The notes under the pieces: model-generated
What the model was told of the DNA's origin: nothing
What the model saw: only the letters and a program-made list of their open reading frames with translations
Database searches by the model: none
Part shown: positions 9,073 through 60,965 of the stretch, one piece after another
How positions within the stretch are numbered: position 1 is the stretch's first letter
Layout of the letters: every line of letters begins with the position of its first letter
DNA from: Candidatus Tagabacteria bacterium
Lineage (GTDB): Bacteria > Patescibacteriota > Minisyncoccia > GCA-002779875
DNA: 64,000 nucleotides
Direction of reading: 5' to 3'
NCBI GenBank assembly: GCA_963820595.1
Contig: CAWGAO010000007.1
Coordinates: 49,071-113,070, forward strand
Made by a program: the position numbers and the translations under genes

Positions 9073-10227
9073 ATGAAGATGAGAAAAAAAGTCATATTGA
9101 CTTCACCTTTACCGATTATGCTACCTATAATCAAAATTGTGGGAAATTTCTGCAATCTCAAATGCGATTATTGCTTTTATCACGCGAGAAATCAGGAAGA
9201 CAAAACGATAATGAGCACCGATCTTCTGGAAAAGTTTATCAAAGAATATCTAGAACTTTTTAAAGGTAATCTCCGCTTTACGTGGCATGGAGGCGAACCG
9301 CTTTTAGCGGGTTTGGACTTTTTCGAAAAAATTGTTGAATTCCAACGCAGATATTCGACAAAACGACACATGATTCTTAATACCGTGCAAACCAATGGCA
9401 CGTTAATCGATAACCAATGGGCACACTTCTTTAAGAATCATGATTTTAGAATAGGCGTGAGCCTTGATGGCGTCCAAAAATGCCATGACCGTTTCAGGAA
9501 AAATCGAGCCGGACATGGATCTTTTGAACGCGTCTTAAAGGGCATTAAGACTCTCCAGAAATACAAGGTGCCGGTTTCGATTTTGTCTACTCTAACGCGT
9601 CCTGGTCTAAAATATGCTGAAGATAATTTTAGTTTCTTTACGGAAAATCTTGGCATAAAGACCCTAGGAAATTGCGTTTATTGTTCGAGGTGTAAAATAA
9701 GAGGTCAAAATCTCAATATTCGCCCCGAAGATTTAACCGTATATCTAAAAAAGATAATTGACCTGTGGTTAGAAAAAAATGATGCAAGTATTAGGGTAAG
9801 AGAAATCGAAAATCATCTCGCGGGATTATTTGGTAAAGAAGCAGCCCTCTGTTTATTTAATGGATGGTGTACGGCCTTTTTTTGCCTTGAATCTGATGGC
9901 AAAATCTATCCCTGCGACAGAATGTCCGGAAATGAAAAACTTCTTTTCGGTAATTTATCTAAAAATTCTCTTATTTCAATTCTAAATAGTCCGATAAGAC
10001 TTCGTTATGCTCAAAAAGCAAATTTTCTCCATAACGATTGCTTATCCTGCAACTGGAAAAATTCTTGTAATAATGGTTGTATAGATTACAGAGACCAAAA
10101 TGGTAAGTTTTATTTCTGTAAGAGCCGCCAAGAAATCTTTCGCTATTTGAAATCAAAGCTGGAAGATGAAGGCGTGTCCTTGAATCTAGGAAAGGAGGTA
10201 AAAAAAAATGGCCAAACCCAAGAATAA
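9073..10227 (+). CDS. radical SAM enzyme with C-terminal SPASM domain (anSME-like peptide-modifying maturase)
   Basis: CNLKCDYC at residues 27-34 and GGEPLL. SPASM signature: CLESDGKIYPC, CLSCNWKNSCNNGC (CX2CX5CX3C), then FYFC. Confidence 0.9.
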   Translation: MKMRKKVILTSPLPIMLPIIKIVGNFCNLKCDYCFYHARNQEDKTIMSTDLLEKFIKEYLELFKGNLRFTWHGGEPLLAGLDFFEKIVEFQRRYSTKRHMILNTVQTNGTLIDNQWAHFFKNHDFRIGVSLDGVQKCHDRFRKNRAGHGSFERVLKGIKTLQKYKVPVSILSTLTRPGLKYAEDNFSFFTENLGIKTLGNCVYCSRCKIRGQNLNIRPEDLTVYLKKIIDLWLEKNDASIRVREIENHLAGLFGKEAALCLFNGWCTAFFCLESDGKIYPCDRMSGNEKLLFGNLSKNSLISILNSPIRLRYAQKANFLHNDCLSCNWKNSCNNGCIDYRDQNGKFYFCKSRQEIFRYLKSKLEDEGVSLNLGKEVKKNGQTQE

Positions 10228-12121: not shown

Positions 12122-12205
12122 GGTTTGTTTTTCCTCCTATTTGCTTTCAATGGGCAATTTTTAGTCTAAAAACAGAATAGCACATTGCGTGCTATCTGTC
12201 AAATG

Positions 12206-12245
12206 TCCGCCCACTAGGAATCGAACCTAGAACCTTCTCTCCCGC
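12206..12245 (-). other. orphan tRNA 3' fragment (T-arm plus acceptor 3' strand)
   Basis: The minus strand reads ...GGGAGAGAAGGTT-CTAGG-TTCGATT-CCTAG-TGGGCGG-A. No matching 5' half is adjacent. Confidence 0.6.
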
Positions 12246-12300
12246 AAAATAAGGAACGTCAGTGACTATATTTTGCGTGGATCCCGTTGTGCGCCCCTGC

Positions 12301-12375
12301 TCCGCCCATCAGGAATCGAACCTGAAACCTTCTCCTTAAAAGGGAGCTGTCCGCCAACTGGCGGACTATGGGCTT
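12301..12375 (-). tRNA. tRNA-Lys(UUU)-like gene with a mismatched acceptor 5' end
   Basis: Hand-folded: AAGCCCA TA GTCC-GCCAGTTGGC-GGAC A GCTCC-CTTTTAA-GGAGA AGGTT TCAGG-TTCGATT-CCTGA TGGGCGG A. Only 5 of 7 acceptor pairs form. Confidence 0.55.
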
Positions 12376-12380
12376 AAATA

Positions 12381-12453
12381 TCCGCCTGGAAGGACTCGAA
12401 CCTTCAACTTTCTCCTTAAAAGGGAGCTACTCTACCAATTGAGTTACAGGCGG
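12381..12453 (-). tRNA. tRNA-Lys (anticodon UUU)
   Basis: Hand-folded cloverleaf: CCGCCTG TA ACTC-AATTGGTA-GAGT A GCTCC-CTTTTAA-GGAGA AAGTT GAAGG-TTCGAGT-CCTTC CAGGCGG A. Acceptor pairing is 7 of 7. Confidence 0.85.
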
Positions 12454-12707
12454 TTAATTGATATTATGTTTTTAATAAATTCTCTGCCTCTGAAACTTTT
12501 CAACTCTTTTTCCCTTCTCAGCGCGTTGTGCTTATCATTTAATTTTTCTTTATACACGACAATCCATGGTCCTGCATTTTTCCTTGTAAAATGTGCTATA
12601 TTTTGTCGAAAGTTATTATGCTCTGCGCTTCTCCTTTCTAAATTATTTGTCGAACCGATATAGATTTTACCACTACTCTGACTTTTTAGGACATAAACAT
12701 AGTACAT
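12444..12707 (-). CDS. small GIY-YIG nuclease family protein
   Basis: YYVYVLKS...GKIYIGSTNNLERRSAEHN matches the GIY-X10-YIG, R and E core. Its stop codon lies inside tRNA-Lys positions 8-10. Confidence 0.8.
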   Translation of the reverse strand: MYYVYVLKSQSSGKIYIGSTNNLERRSAEHNNFRQNIAHFTRKNAGPWIVVYKEKLNDKHNALRREKELKSFRGREFIKNIISINRL

Positions 12708-12711
12708 ATTT

Positions 12712-12748
12712 ATCGGGAACTGTCCGCCAGCTGGCGGACTATGGGCGG
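12712..12748 (-). other. orphan tRNA 5' fragment (acceptor 5' strand through the anticodon stem)
   Basis: CCGCCCATAGTCCGCCAGCTGGCGGACAGTTCCC matches the 5' part of the 12301-12375 tRNA at 30/34. Its CCGCCCA is perfectly complementary to the TGGGCGG 3' strands at 12302 and 12207. Confidence 0.6.
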
Positions 12749-14596: not shown

Positions 14597-14706
14597 AATT
14601 TCCTAAATTTTAGAGCAAAGCGAATAAAATTTAACTGAAATTGTGAGCATCCCGCCAAAGCCCTGCCTGCGGCAGGCAGGTTCAGCGGAGGCGGGGTATT
14701 CATAAT
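14597..14706. repeat. nested-hairpin element (copy B2, degenerate) carrying a CCTGCCTGC palindrome in its loop
   Basis: GAGCA-TCCCGCC...CCTGCCTGCgGCAGGCAGG...GGCGGGG-TA, between dnaK and dnaJ. Confidence 0.75.
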
Positions 14707-26844: not shown

Positions 26845-28359
26845 TTAATCTCCGAATTGAATTCCTTGTGCCAACGGCAATTCCTTTGACCAATTAATGG
26901 TGCAAGTTTGCCTTCTCATATATGCTTTCCAGGAGTCGCTTCCGGCTTCGCGGCCACCGCCAGTTTCTTTTTCTCCGCCGAATGCCAATCCTATCTCGGC
27001 GCCGCTTGTGCCGATATTAACGTTGGCGATTCCGCAATCGCTTCCGCGATGACTCAAGAATGTTTCCGCAGTCATCAAATCGTTTGTGAATATTGCAGAA
27101 GAAAGCCCCTGTGACACTTCATTATTCAGTTGAATCGCTTCTTCTATATCTTCTATTCCGAGAAGATATAGAATGGGGGCAAATGTTTCTTCTTTGATGA
27201 TAGCCATATTTTTATGGCCTACTACCAATGTCGGCTCTACAAAAAATCCAGGGCGTACTATTCTCCCGCCGCCGTGAATTATTTGGCCGCCTTGCCTCTT
27301 TATTTCTTCTATCGCCGCCATCATATTTTTAACAGCTTTTTCATTAACCAGCGGCCCCATCAAGGTTTTTGGGTCAAGAGGATCGCCGATTTTAATTTGC
27401 CCATACGCTTTTAGCAAGCGTTGAATTAATTGAGAGATAATTCCTTTTTGCGCCAAGACGCGGCGCGTGGTAGTGCAGCGTTGACCGGCAGTTCCTACGG
27501 CGCCAAAAAGAATCGCGCGGGTTGCCAAATCAAGATTAGCATCATTCATAACGATTACGGCATTATTGCCGCCAAGTTCCAGAAGAACTCTTCCCAGGCG
27601 TTTACTCACCGCTCTGGCAACATGGTAACCCATCTTGCAAGAACCTGTCGCGCTGATTAGCGCGATGCGTTTATCCGAAATCAAGCGTTCGCCAATGGAT
27701 TCTCCTTCGCCGATAACAAGGTTAAAAATATCCCGCAGGTCGTGGCGCCTTAAAACGCGATTGCATATATTTTGAACCGCGATAGCGGTAAGCGGAGTTT
27801 CTGAAGAAGGTTTCCAAATCGTTGTGTTACCGCAAATAGCGGCAATAGCTGCATTCCAAGCCCATACGGCAACAGGAAAATTGAATGCAGTGATAATTCC
27901 CACTATGCCTAAAGAATGCCATTGCTCGTACATGCGATGGGAAGGACGTTCGCTGTGTGTCATAATCCCATAAAGCTGTCTAGAGAGGCCGACCGCATAA
28001 TCGCAAATATCTATCATTTCCTGAACCTCGCCTTCCCCTTCGGCGATAATCTTTCCCATCTCCATGGACACCAATGTGCCAAGTTCCTATTTATAAATTC
28101 GCAGTTCTTCGCCAATTTGGCGGACAATTTCTCCGCGTTTTGGAGCTGGCAGCATTCGCCAGCTTTTAAAAGATTCCTGGGCTGCCAAAACTACTTCTTC
28201 GTAACTTTCAGGAACGGCTTTCAGAACCCGGGCAATTTCTTCGCCAGTTGCCGGATTAATTGAAACTAATTCCTCGCCGACTGGATTTTTAATCCACTCG
28301 CCGCTACAAACGCCAAAATTGGTTTTTTGGATTTTTAACTCTTCCAGAATGCCTTTCAT
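26845..28359 (-). pseudogene. ALDH7/antiquitin-like aldehyde dehydrogenase interrupted by an in-frame TAG (28087-28089)
   Basis: 28087-28359 and 26845-28074 are in the same frame: ...[52 protein letters not shown]. The alignment is continuous with the ALDH7 pattern (IVRQIG..LR....LG.LVSLEMGKI..EG.GEVQE). Confidence 0.8.
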
Positions 28360-29460: not shown

Positions 29461-29967
29461 TTATTGCTCTAAAACCGCTTTTATGCGCCGCACGCCCGCG
29501 CTTGAAGCTTCTTCTTTGATGATTTTAAATTTTCCCAAAACTCCTGTGCGTTCTACGTGAGGTCCTCCGCAAATTTCTTTCGAGAAGTCGCCGATAGAGT
29601 AAACTTTCACCTTATCTCCGTATTTTTGCTCGAAAACTCCCGTCGCGCCCTGTTTCTTCGCTTCCTCCAAACTCATTTCCTCCATTTTCACGGGCAAATC
29701 TTCTTTGATTTTTTGGTTTACTAAATTTTCTGTCTGTTTTACCTGTTCCGGTGTCATTTTTTCGGGATGAGAAAAATCAAATCTCATCCGTTCGGTCGTG
29801 ATATTCGAACCTTTCTGAGTAACATGTCCGCCTAAAATTTTTCGCAAAGCCGCCAGCAATAAATGAGTTGCGGTGTGATATTTTGTCACCATTTCCGAAT
29901 GGTCTGCCAAGCCGGATTTGAAAATGCCGGCGCGCTGCAGTGCGGGAAAGCTCTTGGTGTTGTTCAA
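29461..29967 (-). CDS. AlaX-S-like / AlaRS editing-core protein (TTG start)
   Basis: HTATHLLLAALRKILGGHVTQKGS...RFDFSH...CGGPHV...GVRRIKAV are the AlaRS second-additional-domain motifs. 214 nt of non-coding sequence, including its own AAGGAGGG, separates it from the alaS fragments. Confidence 0.75.
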   Translation of the reverse strand: MNNTKSFPALQRAGIFKSGLADHSEMVTKYHTATHLLLAALRKILGGHVTQKGSNITTERMRFDFSHPEKMTPEQVKQTENLVNQKIKEDLPVKMEEMSLEEAKKQGATGVFEQKYGDKVKVYSIGDFSKEICGGPHVERTGVLGKFKIIKEEASSAGVRRIKAVLEQ

Positions 29968-30181
29968 ATGCCTTTTGAAATTCTACTTTATCATTTTCGA
30001 ATTTTAGTAATTATCCCTCCTTTCTTCTTGCTCTATTTTTTATCTCTTCAATACTCATTTCTATGGGAAATCCATAGAGTTTGAGATAAAAATATCAAAC
30101 GCTGCCTAATCGCTCTTCCGTCCAAAATCACGAGTTAATTTCTTGGACTTGCAAATTTTTTATTTCACTTTTCAAGGTCGT

Positions 30182-31382
30182 TTAATCCCTTTCCAAAGCT
30201 TTTAAATTTTCCTCTCTCACTAATTGTTCTTCGATAAAATTTTTATGTTCTTTTAGTTCAGGATAATCATTTTTATAAATATCAATAACAACTTTGGCGA
30301 TTTTGAAAGTAAAAATATCGTTTATTCCTATTTGTTTTCCGTATCTGACGCTACGGCGGATAAGCCGGCTCAAAACATAGCCGCGTTCAACGTTGGACGG
30401 TTCAACTCCTTCGGCCAAAATAAACGCTAGCGGCTTTGATATGGTCGCTGATTATCCTAATCGCTCTTTCTTTTTCGGCTTTTTTTTCGAGTCCGGCAAT
30501 CTGCTTATTTATGGCATGGCCGGGGTCGTAAAGCGCGTCAAAAGAATCGGTCGGCTCGGCGGAAATTCCGGCGATTTTTCTGATTTCTGAAACAATCGGT
30601 TTGAATAATTCCGTTTCGTAAACGCTGTTCTGCCCGTTTAAAACGGCGATTATCCTCTCCAAGCCCATTCCGGTATCCACGTTTTTTTGTTTCAGGGGTT
30701 CGAATTCTCCGGCGGAGTTTTTGTTGTACTGCATGAAAACATCGTTCCAAAATTCAAGCCACAGAGGATTAGCGGCATCGAAAATTTCCGGAGGTTTTTC
30801 CGACTCCCCCATCCAATAAAACATTTCGGTATCAGGACCGCACGGTCCTGTTTCTCCCGCCGGGCCCCACCAGTTATTTTCTTTGGGGAGTTTGGCGATT
30901 CTTTTTTCGGAAACCCCCAAACTTTTCCATATCTCAAAAGCTTCCTTGTCGAAAGGCGCATCGTTGTCGCCGGCAAAAACTGAAACTGCGATCCGGTTTT
31001 TATCTAAAGCCAGCCATTTTTTCGAGGTTAAAAATTCCCAGCTCCATTCTATCGTTTCTTTTTTCCAATAACCTGCCCCGATTCCATCAGGGCTGGCGGG
31101 GTCTCCCAAAGACCAATTGCCCAGCATTTCAAGAAAAGTCACGTGCCAATCGTCGCCCACCTCGTCTATATCGCTCGTTCTGATGCATTTTTGAACGTCG
31201 GCCAGGCGTTTTCCGGCCGGATGTTTCTCTCCCAAAAGATACGGCACCAAAGGATGCATTCCGGCAGTGGTAAAAAGCACTGTCGGGTCGTGTTCGGGAA
31301 TCAAAGGCGCGCCGGGGATAATCACATGTCCTTTCGATTTAAAAAATTCCAGATATTTTTTCTTTAACTCGATTGAATTCAT
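30182..31382 (-). pseudogene. alaS: alanyl-tRNA synthetase catalytic and tRNA-recognition part, frameshifted at about 30410
   Basis: N-terminal FFKSKGHVIIPGAPLIP...FTTAGM. Fragment 1 ends ...RIISDHIKAASVYFGRRS* while the +1 frame gives FILAEGVEPSNVERGYVLSRLIRR, the conserved AlaRS continuation. Confidence 0.8.
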
Positions 31383-40523: not shown

Positions 40524-41740
40524 TTAAGATAATTTAATAATTTTCTTTAACGACAGTGCGAAATATTCGGCTTCGGCTTCGGTGTTATAAAAATAAACAG
40601 AGGCGCGGACCGAATCTTTGATTCCGCGGCTTATTGTACCATGAATGAACGCAATGCCGTCCCGAACGAACCATTATATGATAAGTTTTATCGAGCAGAA
40701 GAGAAATTTCATGAGAAAACATTTGCGGATGGTAGAAATTAATAATACCGCTCCGCTCTTCGGGATTTTCCGGGCCGATGATTTTCAGTTGCGGGAAATT
40801 CTTTACGCCATCGGTGATAATTCGATTCAGTTTTACTTCTTGCGATTTTATATTCTCAAACCCAATATTTTTGACGATATTTCACGGCCTCTCCCAAACC
40901 AATGATTCCCGCGAAATCAATGAGGCCGGCTTCAAAGCGTTCCGGCCCGTTCAGAAATTTATGATTTTCATAAGTTGAATCTTCCACTGTTCCCCCGCCG
41001 ACAATAAACGGACGTAATTTTTCCATCAGGTTTTTTTTGACATAAAGCACGCCCGTGCCTGTCGGTCCGAGTATTTTGTGTCCGGAAAACGCCAAAAAAT
41101 CGCAATCCAAATCATGAACGTCGATTTTCTGATGTCCTGCCGCTTGCGCCGCATCAACCAAAACCGCAGAACCGTTCTGATGAGCCGATTCTACGATTTC
41201 TTTTATCGGATTGGTGACGCCGTCGAGATTCGAAGTAAAAACAACGGAAATTAATTTTACTTTTGGAGAAAGTTTCTTTTTTAATTCATCTAATGTCGAA
41301 AGTATTGTCGGATTTTGATTTTATGATGCCTAGCTTGATTCCTTTTTCTTCTCCAAAATCTGCCACGGAATAAGATTCGAATTGTGCTCTTTATCGGAAA
41401 TTAAAACCTCATCGCCTTTTTCCAGCGCAAAACTTCTGGCGATCAAGTTGATGCCCTCCGTCGTATTGCGCGTGAAAATGATTTCTTCCGGTTTGGCGTT
41501 TATGAAATCGGCGACAATTTTTCTGGCTTCGGCTATTTTCCGGTTAACCATTTCCCCCATCGTGTGGTTGCTTCTTCCGCCGCAGGCCGGATATTCGCGG
41601 TAATAGTTGTCCATCGCCTCGATGACCGGCTCCGGTTTTAGCGTCATACAGGCATTATCGAAATAAACCGGTCCGCCAGCTGGCGGAGTAAATATCGGAA
41701 AATCCTTTCTGATTTTATCAACGTCAAAAATTTTACTCAT
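40524..41740 (-). pseudogene. class V aminotransferase / cysteine desulfurase (SufS/NifS-like) broken by at least 3 frameshifts
   Basis: N-terminal fragment FDNACMTLKPEPVIEAM...FTRNTTEGINL; middle fragment FLAFSGHKILGPTGTGVLYV. The C-terminus is read in two further frames (...MVRSGRHCVHSW / TISRGIKDSVRASVYFYNTEAEAE). Confidence 0.8.
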
Positions 41741-42820: not shown

Positions 42821-43915
42821 ATGATGGATTTAGGTTATTTTCTTATTATAAAGCCAGTTGGTACTCTTTGCAATCTCAGATGCAGTTATTGTTATTACAA
42901 ACATCTGGATCAGGGCGCAAAAACGCTGATGTCTTATGAGACATTAGAGAAGATTATTGAAAGAGCATTGTTGAGTAACGCGAAAACAGTTCATTTCTGC
43001 TGGCACGGCGGAGAGCCGACCTTAAGAGGGCTCGATTTTTACCGAAAGGCAATGGAATTTCAGCAATCGAAAAATGTTCAACAAAAAACAATTATTAATC
43101 TTATCCAGACAAACGGTGTCCTTATTAATAAGAATTGGATAGATTTTTTCCGAAAGGAAAAATTTGATGTCGGCATTAGCCTCGACGGTACAAAAGAACT
43201 GCATGACAGCAACCGCAAATTAAGCAATGGAAAAGGATTTTTTGATAGAACTTTCAATGCTTTACAGTTGCTTCAAAAAGTAAATATTCCCCATGGCGTT
43301 ATACACACCGTTACGAAAAATACTCTAAAATTAGCCGCAGAAAGCGCACAGTTTTTTATCAATTCGGGATTAAAAAAATGGTCGTATAATGAATATTTTG
43401 AACTCGATCAAAACGGAAAGAAAACACCTAATTCTTTATCTGGAAAGGAATGGACGAATTTTTTAATCTCTGTTTTCAAAACTTGGCTGAATAGCGGAAA
43501 GGATGAAATAAAAATTCGCGAAATACAGAATTTAATTTTTTGGTCATTAGGCTTCAAGCCAAATAACTGCACCCATAGTGGAAATTGTCATAAATTTCTG
43601 ACTATAAATTACAATGGTGACATCTATCCCTGCGAGAGATTGATGGATTACGGCCAGTTTGGAAATATTAAAGATATTGCCATCAGCGAAATTGAAAATC
43701 TTCCCTCATATCAGAAACTAAAAACTGCTGTTTCTGACTATCCCGAGAAATGCAGAACCTGCAGATTTTTTCAAAATTGCCATAATGGCTGCACAAGCCA
43801 TAGAATTAGTGGTTTAAATGGTAAATATTATTTCTGCGAATCACGAAAATATCTTTTCAGATATTTCGCTGAAATGATAAAATCCGCCAAAGAAAGCTCG
43901 AAAGGAGGTGAATAA
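42821..43915 (+). CDS. radical SAM enzyme with C-terminal SPASM domain, paralog of 9073-10227
   Basis: CNLRCSYC and WHGGEPTL. SPASM: CHKFLTINYNGDIYPC, CRTCRFFQNCHNGC (CX2CX5CX3C), YYFC. Colinear with the 9073 enzyme throughout. Confidence 0.9.
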   Translation: MMDLGYFLIIKPVGTLCNLRCSYCYYKHLDQGAKTLMSYETLEKIIERALLSNAKTVHFCWHGGEPTLRGLDFYRKAMEFQQSKNVQQKTIINLIQTNGVLINKNWIDFFRKEKFDVGISLDGTKELHDSNRKLSNGKGFFDRTFNALQLLQKVNIPHGVIHTVTKNTLKLAAESAQFFINSGLKKWSYNEYFELDQNGKKTPNSLSGKEWTNFLISVFKTWLNSGKDEIKIREIQNLIFWSLGFKPNNCTHSGNCHKFLTINYNGDIYPCERLMDYGQFGNIKDIAISEIENLPSYQKLKTAVSDYPEKCRTCRFFQNCHNGCTSHRISGLNGKYYFCESRKYLFRYFAEMIKSAKESSKGGE

Positions 43916-46714: not shown

Positions 46715-47880
46715 CTAAATTTTCCCGTCCTTTATTTTCTTTCTGATATTCTCTACGAAAGTATTGAAAAAGTAAAGATTATGGAAAGTAAGAAGTTTTA
46801 AGGCCGTAATTTCTTTGGCGCGGAAAAGATGAGCGATGTAATTTCGCCGGTAGTTTTGACAGACAAAACAGTCGCATTTTTTATCAAGCGGATTTTTGTC
46901 CGCGAGAAACTTAGATTTCGCCATATCAAGCTTGCCTGCCGAAGTAAAAGCGACGCCGTGCCGGGCATAGTGAGTCGGCACAATACAATCAAAAGTATCA
47001 ACGCCCTTTTTAATAACTTCGGGAATGTCTTCCAGATAGCCAATACCCAAAAGATGCCTCGGTTTTTTTTCCGGCAATTTCGGATTAACCCAGCCGAGCA
47101 TTTTAAGCATCGCTTTTCTGTCATCGCCCACGTCTCCTCCGATTCCGAAACCGTCGAACGGCAATTTGCCGATAAATTTCGCACTCTTCAATTCTTAAAT
47201 CTTTGAATTTTCCGCCCTGAATAATTCCATAAAGCGCCTGCCTACCGGCAGGCAGGCCTGTCTTTGTATTTTTCGCATCCAAACAAATTTTTGCCCAGCG
47301 ATGCGTTCTTTCCAGAGATTTTTTTACGTATTTATAATCGGCAACTGGCGGAGTGCATTCGTCAAAAGCAAACATTATATCCGCTCCCAAATCTTCCTGA
47401 ATTTTAATCGATTCTTTCGGCCCGATAAAAAATTGCTTGCCGTCGAGATAAGAAGTGAAAAAGCACCCTTGGTCGGTAATTTTTAACTGCTTGGGCTGAT
47501 GGCCGCATTTAACGACTATCCTGATGCTGCTGTTTGCCTTTTAAAGTTTTTTCTATCCCGTAATCTTTTCCGAAGCCCAAACTGAAAACCTGAAACCCGC
47601 CGGAGTCGGTCATAAGCGGTTTTTGCCAATTCATAAATTTATGAAGTCCGCCGGCCGATTTTATTATTTTTTCGCCCGGCTTCAGGTGTAAGTGATACGT
47701 ATTACAGATAAGAAGCTGGCACTTCGCGTTAAACGCTTCTTCGCTGGTCAGGGTTTTGACAACCGCTTGCGTCGCCACAGGCACCAAAGACGGCGTTTCT
47801 ATTATGCCGTGTTCCGTTTCTATAATTCCCAATCTCGCCTTGCTTTTTTTCGATTTTTTGAGAATTTTGAACTTAATCAT
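46715..47880 (-). pseudogene. tgt: queuine tRNA-ribosyltransferase broken by at least 2 frameshifts, with an in-frame CCTGCC palindrome
   Basis: Fragments: ...LMTDSGGFQVFSL; ...LGADIMFAFDECTP...YGIIQGG; ...FDGFGIGG...PRHLLGIGYLEDI...CDCFVCQNY. Junctions lie near 47510-47530 and 47190. Confidence 0.85.
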
Positions 47881-48645: not shown

Positions 48646-48672
48646 GCGCGGAGAAATCCGCGCTTTTTATTT
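48646..48672 (+). terminator. intrinsic terminator (overlaps the uvrC stop)
   Basis: GCGCGGA-gaaa-TCCGCGC followed by TTTTTATTT. Confidence 0.8.
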
Positions 48673-49890
48673 TGCCGATAATTTACGCTGGCGACGGCTC
48701 GTTTTTAGGGCGAAACGATGCGCCTCTTCTCTTACTTTCAGGAGAACGCCTTTCTCGGTTTGAATCAGCTCTTTCAGCGAAGATTTTACTTTCGGCTGAA
48801 AGACTAATTTGTCGCCGCCGAATTTTGAAATGCCTACGATAGGAATGGATATGTTCAGTTTTTTAAAAGTTTTTGATATGAAAGATATCTGCGGTTTGCC
48901 GCCATCAATCATTATCAAGTCGGGATAATGCCATTCCGGATGGCGGAATCTGCGCGTTATCATTTCTTCCAACGCGCGCAAATCGTCGTTGGCCGGCGCC
49001 TCTTTGATATTGAACAAGCGATACTGGCTATTGTCGGCTTTGCCATCAATAAATACCACCATTGAACCGACGGTTTCTTTGCCCGTTAAATGAGAAATAT
49101 CATATCCCTCAATTCTGTTGAATTTAGCGGTTCCTTGCGATAAATCTTCCCGTGAAATCAAGGCAACGTCCTGTATGTGCTTCAAACTTTGAATCGCCAT
49201 CTGATTTTCGTTTTTCAGCTTTTTAAAAAGTTTCTTTTTTTCGCCTCTTAAAAATAAAATCAAGTTATCAATATTTTTTTGGTATTCTTCCTTACTGATT
49301 TTATTCACGCACGCGCCCGGACACAACCCGATTTGATAATCAAAACATGGCTTGCCGGAATTTTTTGCAGGCTTGCCTGCCGCTAGGCAGGTGCTGTACG
49401 GAAAAATTTTTCTGATGATGCGCAAGCCGTTTTTAATCGCGGACAAGCTCTGATAAGGCCCGAAAACTCTATCTTGAGGAAATTTTTCCAGCTCCCTTTG
49501 TCTTACTATAAACGGCCGGGGAAAACCTGCAGTGAGCGAAGTCGAACCGTCGGCTCTCGGGAACTTGTCCCGAGCTTGTCGAGGGATAACAATATAAATG
49601 AATGAGCGATTATCCTTTTCCTTAACGTTATATTTCGGCCAATATTTTTTAATGAGATTAGCTTCCAGAACAAGCGCTTCCAGCACGCTATCGGTTTTGT
49701 AATATTTTATTTTTACCGCCGAATCAATCATCTCCGCCAAACGCGGGTCCTGTTGTTTTTGAAAATAACTGATAACCCTCCTCCGCAAAGAAGTGGCTTT
49801 GCCGACATATAGCGGTTTTTTGTTTTTATTTAAAAATAAATAAACTCCCGGGCTTAGTGGTAATTTTTTAACTTGTTCCAATAAATTCAT
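48667..49890 (-). CDS. uvrC: excinuclease ABC subunit C, short form (GIY-YIG, Cys region and endonuclease domain; no C-terminal HhH)
   Basis: [24 protein letters not shown] (GIY-YIG), [14 protein letters not shown] and IEGYDISH. Two palindrome-encoded inserts are present. Confidence 0.88.
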
Positions 49891-52424
49891 AAATATTTCT
49901 TTAAATACGCACCTGTATAAGAATGTTTATTATGGGCCACGTCTTCGGGCGTGCCTTTGGCAACCACTTTGCCGCCTTTTTCTCCGCCTTCCGGCCCCAA
50001 ATCAATAACATAATCCGCGCATTTAATTACATGCATATTGTGCTCGATGATTATTACCGTATTTCCCTTCTCCACTAATTTATTCAAAACTTCAAGCAAG
50101 CATTTTAACGTCGTGATAGTGCAAACCTACAGTTGGCTCGTCCAGCAAATACAAAACCCGCTTTCCCAAAGGATGAGTCAACTCTCGGCCAAGTTTTACT
50201 CTCTGCGCTTCTCCGCCTGATAAAGTCGTGGCCGACTGTCCCAACTGCAAATATCCCAAACCGACTTCTTTCAAAACTTTCAGTTTATCGGCAATCGTGT
50301 AAATATCTTTGAAAAAATGTTAGCCGCTTCGTCTATGGTTAAATTCAAAACATCGCTGATGTTTTTCTTTTTGTAGTGCACCTGCAAGGTTTCGCGGTTG
50401 AATCTTTTGCCCTGGCAAACTTCGCATTTTACCAGAACCGGCGGCAGAAAATGCATTTCAATCAGATTAAATCCTGCGCCTTCGCACGCCTCGCACCTTC
50501 CGCCGCCTTTTGCGGACGACACGTTAAAAGAAAAACGCGAAGCTTTGTATCCCTTTTCCCGCGCTTCGGGAAGCTCGGCAAAAAAATCGCGAATCGGGGT
50601 AAAAATGCCGGTATAAGTGGCCGGGTTCGAGCGCGGAGTGCGGCCAATCGGCGACTGGTCAACGACAATCGCTTTATCAATATATTCAATGCCAAAAAGT
50701 TTTGATACTTTTTCAAGATTGCTTTCCATGCGCGCTTTTACTGTGGCCTATATTCGTATATAAAACATCATAAAGCAAACTTGATTTTCCGCTTCCGGAA
50801 ACGCCGGTCAAACAAATGAATTTCCGCAAAGGAATCGCCACATCAATATTTTTTAAATTATTGGCGCGGGCTCCGATAATTTTTATTTCTTCGGTTGTTT
50901 TTGTTCTCCGATATTTCGGCAAAGAAATTTCCAAATCTCCTTTGAGATATTTCAAAGTCAGGGAATTTTCGTATTTTGCGGCATGTTTCAAAAGTTCGTC
51001 TATCGGACCGTTGGCAACGACTTCCCCGCCATGCTTGCCCGCTAAAGGCCCTAAATCAAGCAAGATGGTCGGACGAACGGATTGTTTTTTCGTCGTGCTC
51101 GACGATGATAACCGTATTATTCTGGTCTCTCAAAGCCTTTAAAGTTTTTATCAGTCTGTCGCTGTCTCTTTCGTGAAGACCGATTGTCGGCTCGTCTAAA
51201 ACATAAAGGGTTCCGGATAATCCCGAGCCGATTTGCGAAGCCAAACGAATTCTTTGCGCTTCGCCGCCCGAGAGAGTTTCCGCTTCGCTGATTCAAAGTC
51301 AGATAATCAAGCCCCACTTCCAATAAAAATCCCAACCGATTTATTATTTCTTTCAAAAGATTTTCGGCAATGAGTTTATGGCGCGCATTCAATTTATCTT
51401 CATAGTTGGTAAAGAATTCGTAAGCGTCGTCGATTGTGAGTGAGCTTGCTTCCCAGATGTTTTTTTTGTTTATTCTCACCGAAAGGGCTTCGGGCTTTAA
51501 CCTTTTTCCTTCGCAGTCCGGACAAATCGTATCCAGAAACAAATCGATTTTTCCCAAACCGTGGCAGGTCGGGCAGGCGCCGTGCGGGCTGTTGAAAGAA
51601 AAAAGTCGGGGCTCCACTTCAGGAAACGCGAAATTATCGTCCGGACAGGTACGCAAGCATGAAAGCAAAAGTTCCACTGGTTCTGATGCATTTAGAGTGG
51701 TCTGCTTTAGAAAACAACTTTAACCAAGCCTTGACTGTAATGAATCGCATTTTCAACAGCCTCAAACAAACGGCTTTCGTCATCCAGCATCACTCTATCC
51801 ATCACGATATCAATGTCGTGTTCTTTATAACGCGGCATTGTTATTTTTTCATGAAGAGACTTCAGTTCGCCGTCAATTCGCGCCTGGCCGAATCCTTCCG
51901 ATAAGAAAATCGTATAAAAGCTGATAATATTCTCCTTTTCTGCCGCGGACCACGGGCGCAAGAACGAGCGCATGCTTTTCCTTTAATTCCCTGCCTCGGC
52001 CGATAATAATATCCACCATTTCTTCAATGGAAAGTTTTTCTATTTTGGTTCCGCAAACGGGACAAAAAACTTCGCCCAAGCGAGCGTATAAAACGCGCAG
52101 ATAATCGTAAATTTCCGTCAGAGTGCCGACGATGGAGCGCGGATTGTGGGATAAAGCGCGCTGGTCAATGGCGATTGCCGGCGAAAGGCCCGTGATTTCA
52201 TCAACGTCGGGCCGGTCCATCTGCCCCAAAAATTGCCGCGCGTAAGGCGACAAAGATTCGATGTATCGCCGCTGGCCTTCGGCAAAAATAGTGTCAAAAG
52301 CCAAAGACGATTTCCCGCTTCCGGAAACCCCGCTGAACACTATCAGCTTATTTTTCGGCAATTCCACAGAAATATTTTTGAGATTGTGTACTCTAGCTCC
52401 TTTTATTATTATTTTATCTTTCAT
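49887..52424 (-). pseudogene. uvrA: excinuclease ABC subunit A fragmented into at least 8 reading-frame pieces
   Basis: Track ORFs 51873-52424, 51707-51973, 51117-51677, 51056-51244, 50713-51063, 50280-50729, 50092-50274 and 49887-50099 give consecutive UvrA segments ([23 protein letters not shown] ... LSGGEAQR ... [11 protein letters not shown] ... [10 protein letters not shown] ... [11 protein letters not shown] ... [10 protein letters not shown]). Confidence 0.9.
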
Positions 52425-53181: not shown

Positions 53182-53224
53182 GTTTTATACCATCGGACTT
53201 CGGTTCGATGGTATTTTTATTTTT
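53182..53224. terminator. bidirectional intrinsic terminator
   Basis: TGTTTTAT-ACCATCG-gacttcggtt-CGATGGT-ATTTTTATTTTT. Confidence 0.75.
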
Positions 53225-55076
53225 CTAAATCCAATAAACTTTCGACCTTTTTAATTATCGATTTCGGCGTAATGCCGTGTTTTTTATTGTAAGCCGCCTG
53301 AAGCTTTCTTCTTCTCTCAACCTCCCCCATCGCTCTTTTTAACGAACCCGTTATGTTGTCGGCGTATAAAATTACCTTACCGTCCACATTGCGGGCGCAT
53401 CTTCCCATTGTCTGGATTAAAGAAGTATCGCTCCGCAAAAATCCTTCCCGGTCGGCGTCTAAAATCGCAACGAGAGTTACTTCGGGTAAATCCAATCCTT
53501 CGCGGAGCAAATTTACTCCAACCAAAACATCAAATTCGCCCTTTCTGAAATTCGTCAAAATTTCCGCCCTTTCCAAAGTTTTGGTTCCGGAATGCATCCA
53601 GTGCACTTTAAAACCGGCTTTATCCAAAAAATCGCTGAAATCCTCGGCCATCTTTTTCGTCAAAACATTTACTATCGCGCGTTCTTTTCTTTTCGCGATT
53701 CCTTTCAGTTCTTCAATCAAATCATCCACTTGGCTCCTGTTTGTTTTTTTATCGAAAACCGGCCGTATCTCTGTCGGCGGGTCAATCAACCCCGTGGGCC
53801 TGATAATTTGTTCCGCCACCTGCGACGAATGGTTTATTTCAAAATAGCTGGGCGTGGCGGAAGTAAAAATAACCTGGCCGGTCCGTTTTTCGAACTCATC
53901 GAATTTCAAAGGCCGGTTATCGAGAGCCGAAGGAAGACGCCAGCCGTATTGCACTAAAATATCTTTGCGCGCCCTGTCGCCTTGATACATGCCGCGAATT
54001 TGCGGCACGCTGATGTGCGATTCGTCTATAATCGTCAAAAAATCGGGTTTTCCGTTTTTCTGGGCCTGCCCTGAGCCTGTCGAATGGGGAAAATAAGAAA
54101 GAAGCGTGTCGGGCGGATCCCCCGCCAGCTTTCCCGCCAAATGACGCGAATAATTTTCAACGCCGTGGCAATAACCGATTGTTTTAAGCATTTCCATATC
54201 ATATTTGGTCCTGCGTCCCAGTCTCTCCGCTTCAAGATATAATTTTTTCTTTTCAAAAAACTTCAAGCGTTCTTTTAATTCCTTTTTGATTTCCTTAATC
54301 GCCTGCTCTCTTTGCGGTTCCGTTGAAATAAAATGTTTGGGCGGGAAAATAACGATTTCTTTCAATTTTTCCTTAACGTGGCGCGTGAGCGGATCGGCCA
54401 AAGCGATTTCTTTGATTTTCTGGTCTTCAAGTTCAATTCGAAGCACATTTTCTCCGGAAGCCGGCATGATTTCGAAAACGTCTCCGCGCAAACGAAAATA
54501 TCCGCGCTTCAATTCGCCGCTTGTTCTTATAAATTGCATCTTAATCAATTGCCGCAGAAGGTCTCCTCGGGTCATGAATTTTTCCGTTTCCAGATGCAAT
54601 GCACTGCCAAAATATTCCGTCGGCACACCGAGGTTGTAAATGCAGGAAACCGAAGCCACAATGATAACGTCCCTTCTAGAAAGCAAAGCGCTTGTCGCCC
54701 GATGCCTCAACCGGTCTATCTCGTCGTTTATCATCGCCTCTTTTTCAATGTAGGTATCAGTAATGGGCATATAAGCCTCGGGCTGATAATAATCGTAATA
54801 AGAAACGAAATAATTCACCGAATTTTCGGGAAAGAAATTTTTGTACTCGCGGTAAAGCTGGGCGGCCAAAGCTTTGTTCGGCGCAATGACCAAAACCGGC
54901 ATATCAAAACGGCTGATAACGTTCGCCACCGTAAAAGTTTTACCCGAGCCGGTAACGCCCAAAAGCGTCTGATATCTGTTATCGGCTTTTATGCCTTCGA
55001 CCAGCTTTTCAATCGCTTGTGGTTGATCTCCTGATGGCTGATAATTGGATTTTAATTTGAATATTCGTTTTGACAT
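53217..55076 (-). CDS. uvrB: excinuclease ABC subunit B (intact, no C-terminal UVR extension visible)
   Basis: [16 protein letters not shown], helicase motifs and the beta-hairpin region; 619 aa. The insert [14 protein letters not shown] lies before IIDESH. Confidence 0.95.
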
Positions 55077-57111: not shown

Positions 57112-57762
57112 TCAAGTATAATGCCTTAGATTGAAACGGTAAGGTTTATTTGCCCATTCGCTGGCGTAGGCTACGCCAATTCTTTTGCTGGCTTTAATCA
57201 TTGAGGGTTTAATTTTAACGCCCCTGCCTGCGCAGGCAGGCCTGTCTTCAATCCATAAGCCGGTTTTTTTATTCGCCGGTTTAGCATTGAACTTTTTATT
57301 AATTTTTAAATATTTGGTAATTCGGGCGGGGCCGGTGATTCTATCGGTTTCCCGCACCAAATCGCTTTTCATCCACATTAATTTATTTTTTTTATTTTTC
57401 AGTTTTGCCTTGTTTTTTCTAGAATAATTTGTTCGTGGCGATTGGTACGGGACTACGCCTCTTATTAAAACCGCCGCGGGATAACCTTTTGACCCTGTTA
57501 CAATATTCAGCATCCAGTGCATTCCGTAAGTGAAATAAATATACCAATTCCCCGCTTCGCCGAACATTACTTTATTCCTTTCGGTCTTGCCGCAGTGCGC
57601 ATGCGACGCCTTGTCTTTCGGACCGTCATATGCCTCGACTTCGGTAATCATTAATTTTATTTCTTTTTTGCCGATTCGGCGCACCAAAAATTTACCCAGC
57701 ATGTCTTTCGCGACGGATAGAGTCGAACGGTTAAAAAATTGAGAGGTTAAAATTTTACGCAT
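57112..57762 (-). CDS. mpg: DNA-3-methyladenine glycosylase (Mpg/AAG family) with palindrome-encoded and Lys-rich inserts
   Basis: ITEVEAYDGPKDKASHA...TERNKVMFGEAGNWYIYFTYGMHWMLN. The DRPACAGRG segment is encoded by CCTGCCTGCGCAGGCAGG. Confidence 0.85.
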   Translation of the reverse strand: MRKILTSQFFNRSTLSVAKDMLGKFLVRRIGKKEIKLMITEVEAYDGPKDKASHAHCGKTERNKVMFGEAGNWYIYFTYGMHWMLNIVTGSKGYPAAVLIRGVVPYQSPRTNYSRKNKAKLKNKKNKLMWMKSDLVRETDRITGPARITKYLKINKKFNAKPANKKTGLWIEDRPACAGRGVKIKPSMIKASKRIGVAYASEWANKPYRFNLRHYT

Positions 57763-60709: not shown

Positions 60710-60965
60710 GCCAAAATTATATGAACATTAGTGAATAACCCGCCTGCCCGACTTCGTCCATGCGAAGTCGGGCAGGAGTCGGGCGCGGTAATTTTGAGCA
60801 CCCCCTCTTTTACACACAAACAACTTTTTGATTAAGATTTCGGAATTTGTTTTCATAAAATGATTTTCATTTTAAACTTTACTAAATTTTAGTGTTAAAA
60901 GAGGGGGTAAAGGTTTGACACCAGAATTTTTACTGCAAGTAAAAATTCTGGTCAACTCCTTTATT
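60710..60965. repeat. nested-hairpin element, long form (copy B8), at the head of the cdaA transcription unit
   Basis: CCTGCCCGACTTCG-tccat-GCGAAGTCGGGCAGG; TTGAGCA-CCCCCTCTTTTA...TAAAAGAGGGGG-TAAAGGTTTGACAC; CCAGAATTTTTAC/GTAAAAATTCTGG. Confidence 0.85.

Follow-up and report, generated by a model that had tools for sequence, protein, structure and literature searches.

A perfect 20-bp GC-rich palindrome between and within genes of a Candidatus Tagabacteria contig, probably a minimal insertion element

Introduction

How does one short palindrome come to lie both between genes and, in frame, inside conserved enzymes? The question is raised by a stretch of 64,000 nucleotides (nt) from a Candidatus Tagabacteria bacterium (GenBank assembly GCA_963820595.1, contig CAWGAO010000007.1, positions 49,071–113,070, forward strand), hereafter the window, to which all palindrome counts for the source genome refer. 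The palindrome, hereafter P1, is a perfect sequence of 20 base pairs (bp), CCTGCCTGCCGGCAGGCAGG, rich in guanine and cytosine (80% GC), with arms CCTGCCTGCC|GGCAGGCAGG and centre variants of 18–21 nt. An initial annotation of the window had listed five copies, three of them in genes for queuine tRNA-ribosyltransferase (tgt), DNA-3-methyladenine glycosylase (mpg) and UvrC (uvrC), and had likened them to the palindromic elements of Rickettsia. In our judgement P1 is probably a distinct, non-autonomous element, about 20 bp long, that inserts at breaks or hairpin junctions and whose genic copies are passengers filtered by selection.

Results

Copies of P1 in the window

The sequences and coordinates of all five copies were confirmed, as were the peptides KTGLPAGRQA (tgt), DRPACAGRG (mpg) and CLAAGKPA (uvrC), all read from the minus strand. 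Two copies are intergenic: the perfect 20-mer CCTGCCTGCCGGCAGGCAGG at 1171–1190, about 45 nt upstream of the start, near 1127, of a minus-strand gene; and a 19-mer variant with centre G, CCTGCCTGCGGCAGGCAGG, at 14662–14680 in the spacer between dnaK and dnaJ. Both are nested within flanking inverted repeats, the former between the arms AAGTCGG (1160–1166) and CCGACTT (1191–1197), the latter as the apex of an outer stem CCCGCC (14651–14656)/GGCGGG (14690–14695). The genic copies, all on the minus strand, are a P1-like 20-mer with one mismatch in tgt (CCTGCCTACCGGCAGGCAGG, 47237–47256), an 18-mer in mpg (CCTGCCTGCGCAGGCAGG, 57223–57240) and a degenerate 20-mer with three mismatches in uvrC (CTTGCCTGCCGCTAGGCAGG, 49372–49391).

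The palindrome is far more frequent than composition predicts: CCTGCCNNNNGGCAGG with at most one mismatch has five matches in the window against 0.05 expected, and the 20-mer with at most three mismatches has three against 0.00. The excess is limited to complete palindromes; solo 7-mer arms are not enriched (five, against about four estimated by hand from base composition). GC-rich perfect hairpin variants number 44 in the window against about five in Markov shuffles, a raw count in which nested variants of one hairpin are each counted. A scan for GC islands in the window did not discriminate. None of the window copies is followed by a T-run on either strand, the sole terminator-like site found near 1171 is a different hairpin, and P1 matches no Rfam family. 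The remark that the element never introduces a stop is true and uninformative, because P1 has no stop codon in any frame.

Insertions in mpg, tgt and uvrC

Alignment with orthologues, at the level of protein and of DNA, bears out the view that the genic copies are lineage-specific insertions and not ancestral residues. In mpg (57112–57762, minus strand, 216 amino acids), 32 of 35 close homologues read WIEDRG; in the window and two relatives this motif is WIED-RPACAG-RG or -RPACRTG-. Empty alleles have the codons GAA GAT AGA GGC GTT; the filled allele, GAA GAC AGG CCTGCCTGCGCAGGCAGG GGC GTT, is found in the window and in two independent assemblies (L005, L006), and a third (L007) carries a 21-nt centre variant. 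Judged from these alignments, the net insert (18 nt, six amino acids) is exactly the 18-nt palindrome, its placement sliding by up to 4 nt owing to the flanking CAGG. The two independent assemblies come from samples other than that of the window; their flanks differ synonymously and the palindrome is identical.

Two frameshifts, near 47190 and 47500, break the tgt gene of the window (46715–47880, minus strand) into three open reading frames (ORFs), a correction to the initial annotation; its closest relatives are single ORFs of 380–390 amino acids. Relatives of 73–85% identity read CLDxKK-T[KG]-QALYG, and the window has seven more residues, TGLPAGR. Protein and DNA alignments place a net insertion of 21 nt, ACAGGCCTGCCTGCCGGTAGG, at 47241–47261 (minus strand), immediately 5' of the conserved Gln-Ala codons CAG GCG, which form the outer right arm (CAGGC). 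The T-containing variant recurs at this site, in the form of an 18-nt insert, in an intact tgt of 68% identity from another sample (L246). In uvrC (48667–49890, minus strand, 407 amino acids; GIY-YIG, UvrC_M and RNase H-like domains), which is intact, 18 nt have been added (CTA GCG GCA GGC AAG CCT, read as LAAGKP; 49369–49386, minus strand) after the conserved Thr-Cys codons ACC TGC, which supply the left arm CCTGC of the degenerate palindrome. LAAGKP is present, with identical DNA, in the window and in one relative of 72% identity; the other relatives are empty. Part of one arm thus consists of conserved host codons in both genes, and the initial annotation went too far in assigning the whole palindrome to the element there. 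The five genic inserts measured, of 18, 21, 18, 21 and 18 nt, are all in frame. P1 is absent from three syntenic relatives, 20 kb each.

The tgt and mpg copies had also been credited with a shared 3' extension. The identity is real and covers 17 nt (GCAGGCAGGCCTGTCTT); in mpg it consists in part of the conserved Glu-Asp-Arg codons and is not an arm of the element, and in tgt five of its bases belong to the insert. To judge from this identity, the tgt copy may have been templated from an mpg-like donor.

The insertion sites lie where the families tolerate changes of length, as the initial annotation had stated. Solved homologues are gapped at the mpg and tgt sites, and the aligned homologues of uvrC differ in length at its site. 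In structural models, the mpg insert (residues 174–179) comes after a strand, in a block with a predicted local distance difference test score (pLDDT) of 67, against 85–89 in the adjacent blocks; the uvrC insert (residues 170–179) is modelled as coil with pLDDT below 50. Both inserts thus occupy loops of lower model confidence than their flanks.

Homologues of mpg, tgt and uvrC in other Patescibacteria carry differing short inserts, rich in P, A, G and R, at the same loops (for example RLPGGQGKA, SLAGRRGS, LPAGRQVL and GTASPKAGEPRPDLSG); the three loops seem to be places where GC-rich elements repeatedly land or are tolerated. The window uvrC has a second, unrelated GC-rich insert at residues ~104–123 (49520–49585, minus strand), present in one relative and absent from others, which contains the hairpin CTCGGGA-N5-TCCCGAG (49556–49574) and is modelled with pLDDT below 50.

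P1 in other phyla and in viral contigs

One genome per species was scanned with the pattern CCTGCCTGC-N0-5-GCAGGCAGG. The 18–20-mer was found in at least 120 stretches from these species-representative genomes; the hosts among the matches listed belong to many classes of Patescibacteria and to Omnitrophota, Bacteroidota, Planctomycetota, Acidobacteriota and Proteobacteria, and include cultured Bacteroidota (Winogradskyella, Flagellimonas, Robertkochia). The perfect 20-mer is the dominant form among the matches listed, and its flanks are unrelated; variant centres are restriction-type sites (GCCGGC, TGCGCA, CTGCAG). The viral contigs yielded 35 stretches with the 20-mer and none with any of three composition-matched control palindromes, one of which retained the tetranucleotide repeat. 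P1 is not peculiar to this genome or lineage.

One viral contig of 29.5 kb (L148, L155, L156) has at least six copies. In two high-GC viral contigs (L129, near 8616; L152, near 2284), P1 lies directly 5' of a T-arm-like sequence, TCGCCGGTTCGAATCCGGC, of what may be a tRNA.

Edges, nesting and copies in open reading frames

P1 is a unit with sharp ends, located at sites that are empty in close relatives. Complementarity of the flanks stops at the edge of the palindrome, being 30% at position -1, near random; the flanks have no conserved head, the one departure being a depletion of T at position -1. P1 is biased to the tips of pre-existing hairpins, including other copies of itself: inverted repeats in the flanks enclose 10.6% of the copies, the figure for shuffled controls being 1.9%, and in three loci (L038, L042, L070) P1 lies within P1, the inner copy one base off the centre of the outer one. 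In one of these (L042, near 2800), the 48-nt nested palindrome amounts to 16 added residues in a dTDP-glucose 4,6-dehydratase.

Only 25 of 126 copies lie in long ORFs, and a depletion of P1 from coding DNA is therefore suggested. Copies in ORFs translate as LPAGRQ, PACRQAG, CLPAGR or LPAQAG; their hosts, judged by eye, look like FtsK, topoisomerase I (TopA), dTDP-glucose dehydratase (RfbB), TruB and RodA, and the copies appear, also by eye, within variable segments of these proteins.

tRNA genes and small GIY-YIG cassettes

In the 155 loci compared, the only recurrent protein family near solo P1 copies is that of small GIY-YIG nucleases. Several copies lie in 5' fragments of tRNA genes, with an intact tRNA a few hundred bases downstream and a small GIY-YIG gene between the two. 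Comparison of the filled fragment with the intact tRNA copy was possible in six pairs (L063, L159, L167, L175, L181, L227): P1 is an exact insertion of 19–20 nt, between A and G in five pairs and between A and C in one, with no target duplication and no microhomology in any of the six. Microhomology as a general rule, suggested by the three genic sites, was abandoned, as it fails in these pairs and in the flank statistics.

The window has such a cassette of its own, in a tRNA region. A gene for a GIY-YIG nuclease of 87 amino acids (12444–12707, minus strand; Pfam E = 2e-16), a candidate partner of the palindromes, overlaps with its stop codon a tRNA-Lys(UUU) (12381–12453, minus strand), which is followed by a tRNA-like gene (12301–12375, minus strand; Rfam, 38 bits) and a further 3' tRNA fragment (near 12205–12260, minus strand). 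The gene is flanked on both sides by a second palindrome family, P2, (G)TCCGCCAGCTGGCGGA(C), with three copies in the window against 0.02 expected: the upstream copy, GTCCGCCAGCTGGCGGAC (12722–12739), is 14 nt away from the gene and occupies a duplicated piece of the 5' part of the tRNA-like gene, and the variant GTCCGCCAGTTGGCGGAC (12349–12366) forms the D-arm of the tRNA-like gene downstream. The remaining copy, TCCGCCAGCTGGCGGA (41672–41687, minus strand), contributes PPAGG, in frame, close to the N-terminus of a fragmentary SufS-like cysteine desulfurase; solved homologues vary in length in this region, so that an insertion there is no more than possible. P2 is also present in six P1 loci.

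As an independent test, 80 metagenome loci (L165–L244) were fetched by similarity to the GIY-YIG protein of the window alone. In nine of them a palindrome stands immediately upstream of the GIY-YIG gene: P1 in six, at 19–40 nt from the start codon, and one of P2 type in the other three; the density of GC-rich hairpins at the ends of the GIY-YIG genes is four times that of the remaining flanks. The proteins, of about 85 amino acids, consist of the catalytic domain only, and their genes commonly adjoin an intact downstream tRNA gene, of many specificities. A tRNA was called in 11 distinct cassettes; every one of them has the first ~34 nt of that tRNA duplicated upstream, and in seven the duplicate is broken by a GC-rich palindrome at tRNA position 22/23 or 32/33. 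From this arrangement the small GIY-YIG cassette appears to enter the anticodon loop and to restore the tRNA in doing so. Cassettes with palindromes cluster in one part of the GIY-YIG protein tree.

Two simpler views were rejected. One took P1 to be just the end of the GIY-YIG cassette; it is separated from the ORF by target-derived tRNA sequence. One locus (L229) had seemed to have a gene flanked by P1 on both sides; it holds two GIY-YIG cassettes in tandem, and the downstream copy belongs to the second.

Three further loci are of note. In L098 (2751–4892) a GIY-YIG module stands in frame in the middle of an HsdS-like ORF (type I restriction specificity), with P1, read as PACRQAG, about 15 codons upstream of the module. 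In L123 (3150–3330), downstream of the GIY-YIG gene, a duplicated 3' part of a tRNA contains two palindromes flanking the T-loop, one a P1 variant and the other ACCTACCTCAGGTAGGT, likewise a doubled tetranucleotide. In cassette L169 the tRNA fragment is broken by an insert (CCTGCCCGACTGAAGTCG...) related to an intergenic hairpin of the window (60743–60776; 14-bp stem CCTGCCCGACTTCG-TCCATG-CGAAGTCGGGCAGG), whose arms are resembled by those flanking the P1 copy at 1171 (AAGTCGG/CCGACTT); this hairpin and its kin are possibly a further palindrome family.

Discussion

P1 as an insertion element

Sharp ends, filled and empty sites, and exact insertion into tRNA fragments make an inserted unit the probable explanation of P1. 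The unit would enter at breaks, or at single-stranded loop/stem junctions cut by a nuclease acting in trans, and mobile DNA would carry it between hosts. Selection would purge most genic copies, the survivors being those that lengthen a tolerant surface loop by a whole number of codons, a filter that would account for the few host bases that genic copies borrow or add. Survival in frame is easy because P1 lacks stops in all frames, and the inserts in mpg, tgt and uvrC (RPACAG, TGLPAGR, LAAGKP) are therefore seen as passenger peptides rather than adaptations.

Several points weigh against this explanation. Transposition has not been witnessed, nor is any enzyme known to act on P1; no transposase was detected among the 30 window ORFs scanned with Pfam, and no family generally adjoins solo P1 copies, the highest figure being 7 of 155 loci in an all-against-all BLAST of 3,873 ORFs. 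In tgt and uvrC one arm is partly host codons, which could be read as local, template-driven growth of a palindrome. The T-containing tgt variant is present in a relative of 68% identity but not in those of 85%, which needs loss, transfer or gene conversion. P1 may merely accumulate in dead tRNA fragments, and the source genome is known here from 64 kb only.

Local growth, in which template switching or quasi-palindrome correction, together with CCTG/CAGG slippage, extends a half-site and nothing moves, is nevertheless unlikely. It would account for the host codons in the outer right arm of the tgt copy (CAGGC, Gln-Ala) and in the left arm of the uvrC copy (CCTGC, Thr-Cys), for the host CAGG that adjoins the mpg insert, and for arms that are tetranucleotide duplications with common centre variants of 18–21 nt; but it is not credible that more than 150 unrelated contexts converged independently on one 9–10-nt arm, the control palindromes had no viral match, and the tRNA fragments gained a full 20-mer between A and G with neither half-site nor microhomology. 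Overlap with host bases in ORFs is predicted anyway by selection for frame on a 20-nt unit: genic copies borrow or add host bases because such a unit cannot otherwise survive in an ORF, and the host-derived arm segments in tgt and uvrC are thereby explained without growth of the palindrome in place. Quite improbable, too, is an origin in place as regulatory hairpins of the host, acting as terminators, attenuators, mRNA stabilisers or protein-binding sites, with the genic copies coincidental or functional RNA structures. Two window copies do lie in suitable places, the 5' leader at 1171 and the dnaK–dnaJ spacer at 14662, and P1 upstream of GIY-YIG start codons could, as a 5' hairpin, stabilise the mRNA; against this stand the identical 20-mer with unrelated flanks in many phyla and viruses, where matched controls gave zero, the copies within ORFs and dead tRNA fragments, the missing Rfam match, and the lack of a T-tract after the window copies, the terminator-like site near 1171 being another hairpin.

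Very little credence is given to a recognition sequence kept by selection or drive, be it for DNA uptake, as a restriction or methylation palindrome of the HIP1 (highly iterated palindrome) kind, or as a recombination signal. Patescibacteria are known to depend on DNA uptake, Neisseria uptake sequences often form inverted pairs, also within genes, and the variant centres GCCGGC, TGCGCA and CTGCAG are of restriction type. The copies are, however, whole-unit insertions relative to empty orthologous sites and not products of point substitution, and their density, about one per 13 kb, is far under that of uptake sequences; the uptake idea was dropped since solo arms stay at the level estimated by hand from composition (five against about four) and only complete palindromes are in excess. 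An artefact of assembly or sequencing chemistry has a practically negligible probability. Fragmentation of tgt, uvrA and other window genes makes base-level quality doubtful, but the mpg copy is identical in two assemblies from other samples (L005, L006) with synonymously different flanks and occurs as a variant in L007, the tgt copy recurs in an intact gene (L246), and P1 is present in isolate genomes and in assemblies made by different programs.

If P1 is an insertion element, the best candidate for its vehicle and nuclease would be the clade of ~85-amino-acid GIY-YIG proteins that invade tRNA genes, with P1 or P2 recurring 19–45 nt upstream of the start codon. It is possible, and put forward tentatively, that P1, P2 and similar palindromes are mobile partners or break-repair scars of this clade, a pairing resembling that of repetitive extragenic palindromic sequences (REPs) with REP-associated tyrosine transposases (RAYTs). 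The nuclease would cut at hairpin loop/stem junctions (the tRNA D-loop at 22/23, the anticodon loop, the tips of palindromes) and a unit would be placed in the break; the nucleases would invade tRNA genes while rebuilding them, cassettes and phages would spread the palindromes between phyla, and solo copies in housekeeping genes would be off-target events. The link between P1 and GIY-YIG genes is statistical only, about 97% of P1 copies having no GIY-YIG gene nearby.

Comparison with known systems

The literature searches turned up no paper containing the 20-mer or describing in-frame insertion of palindromes in Patescibacteria, in agreement with the initial annotation. The parallel drawn there with the Rickettsia palindromic elements is apt as regards in-frame palindromic insertion and fails, on size, as regards membership. 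Those elements, described in Rickettsia, are ~100–150 bp long and form ten families, each encoding a conserved peptide. P1, like them, is found both between genes and in frame in unrelated housekeeping genes, at sites compatible with the fold; unlike them it is 18–21 bp long, perfect, spread over several phyla and viruses, and gives net inserts of 18, 21 and 18 nt. The GC clusters of yeast and Neurospora mitochondria are GC-rich palindromes in an AT-rich genome, mostly intergenic and in some cases in frame (var1); their loops change fast, they nest and merge, some flank tRNA genes, and they are regarded as mobile, with no known enzyme. Their AG or TAG borders are taken as target duplications, and the inserts in Magnusiomyces are bypassed in translation. 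P1, at 80% GC in a window of 41% GC, is likewise mostly intergenic and at times in frame; the clusters, however, are mitochondrial and longer, whereas P1 occurs in bacteria and viruses and made no duplication in the six filled/empty pairs, and all net inserts here are multiples of three, unlike the bypassed inserts of Magnusiomyces. P1 resembles the Rickettsia elements and the GC clusters in effect and is a member of neither.

REPs and their paired forms (REPINs) are short, interspersed, non-autonomous palindromes, whose movement is attributed to a nuclease acting in trans and encoded by a single-copy gene that the repeats flank. REPs are extragenic, imperfect and species-specific, with a conserved GTAG head, and the RAYT is a Y1 HUH enzyme. 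The GIY-YIG gene of the window, with P2 on both sides, follows the same logic. P1 nevertheless differs from REPs in being perfect, without a GTAG head and identical across phyla, and in lying within ORFs (three of five window copies and 25 of 126 elsewhere); no Y1 (HUH) RAYT was found with Pfam among 30 ORFs of the 64 kb covered or among the families near P1, the position being taken by the GIY-YIG gene. Miniature inverted-repeat transposable elements (50–500 bp) have terminal inverted repeats around an internal segment, while P1 is two arms only, of 18–21 bp together, and lacks a target site duplication in the six tRNA pairs. Intrinsic terminators differ by the T-run, which the window copies lack.

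The small dispersed repeats (SDRs) of Nostoc and Anabaena are reportedly mobile, 21–27 nt long and nested, with no known enzyme; SDR4–6 are said to have a non-palindromic core between short inverted repeats and to be restricted to cyanobacteria. On that description SDRs are nearest to P1 in size and share its nesting, P1 being a perfect palindrome found across phyla. For the nuclease, the nearest parallel in setting is SegB of phage T4, one of the free-standing GIY-YIG homing endonucleases, whose gene lies among tRNA genes and which cuts within the tRNA gene region, and the cassettes next to P1 and P2 likewise sit among tRNA genes. The cassette proteins differ from it in having ~85 amino acids and the catalytic domain only, and in the duplicated 5' half of the tRNA. 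SegB is a larger enzyme with a DNA-binding part. We know of no palindrome partner of the Seg enzymes. The unusual traits of P1 are thus its minimal size, its perfect symmetry, its identity across phyla and its association with GIY-YIG genes.

If P1 is a real mobile unit, it stands at the lower size limit for mobile DNA, with two arms of 9–10 nt, no interior and no duplication, and its host range covers several bacterial phyla and their viruses. It also provides a concrete origin for the many short GC-rich insertions that have made loops of conserved Patescibacteria proteins longer. In these genomes annotators should be wary of peptides such as LPAGRQA, PACRQAG and PPAGG, which are repeat-derived. 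The link with tRNA-invading GIY-YIG cassettes suggests an enzyme that can be tested, where repeats of this class, like the mitochondrial GC clusters, have been without one for decades.

Other features of the window

Protein homologues found for the window carry Patescibacteria or Parcubacteria names, and the genes lie mostly on the minus strand. While uvrB (53217–55076) and uvrC are intact, uvrA (49887–52424, minus strand) is broken into at least six consecutive ORFs, against one ORF of 855–864 amino acids in its relatives; further split genes are aldehyde dehydrogenase-like (26845–28359), alaS-like (29461–31382) and sufS-like (40856–41740). This breakage points to indel errors of the assembly or to gene decay; the palindromes are unaffected by it, because they recur in independent assemblies. 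Two radical SAM/SPASM-domain genes (9073–10227 and 42821–43915) lie on the plus strand, which is otherwise sparsely used.

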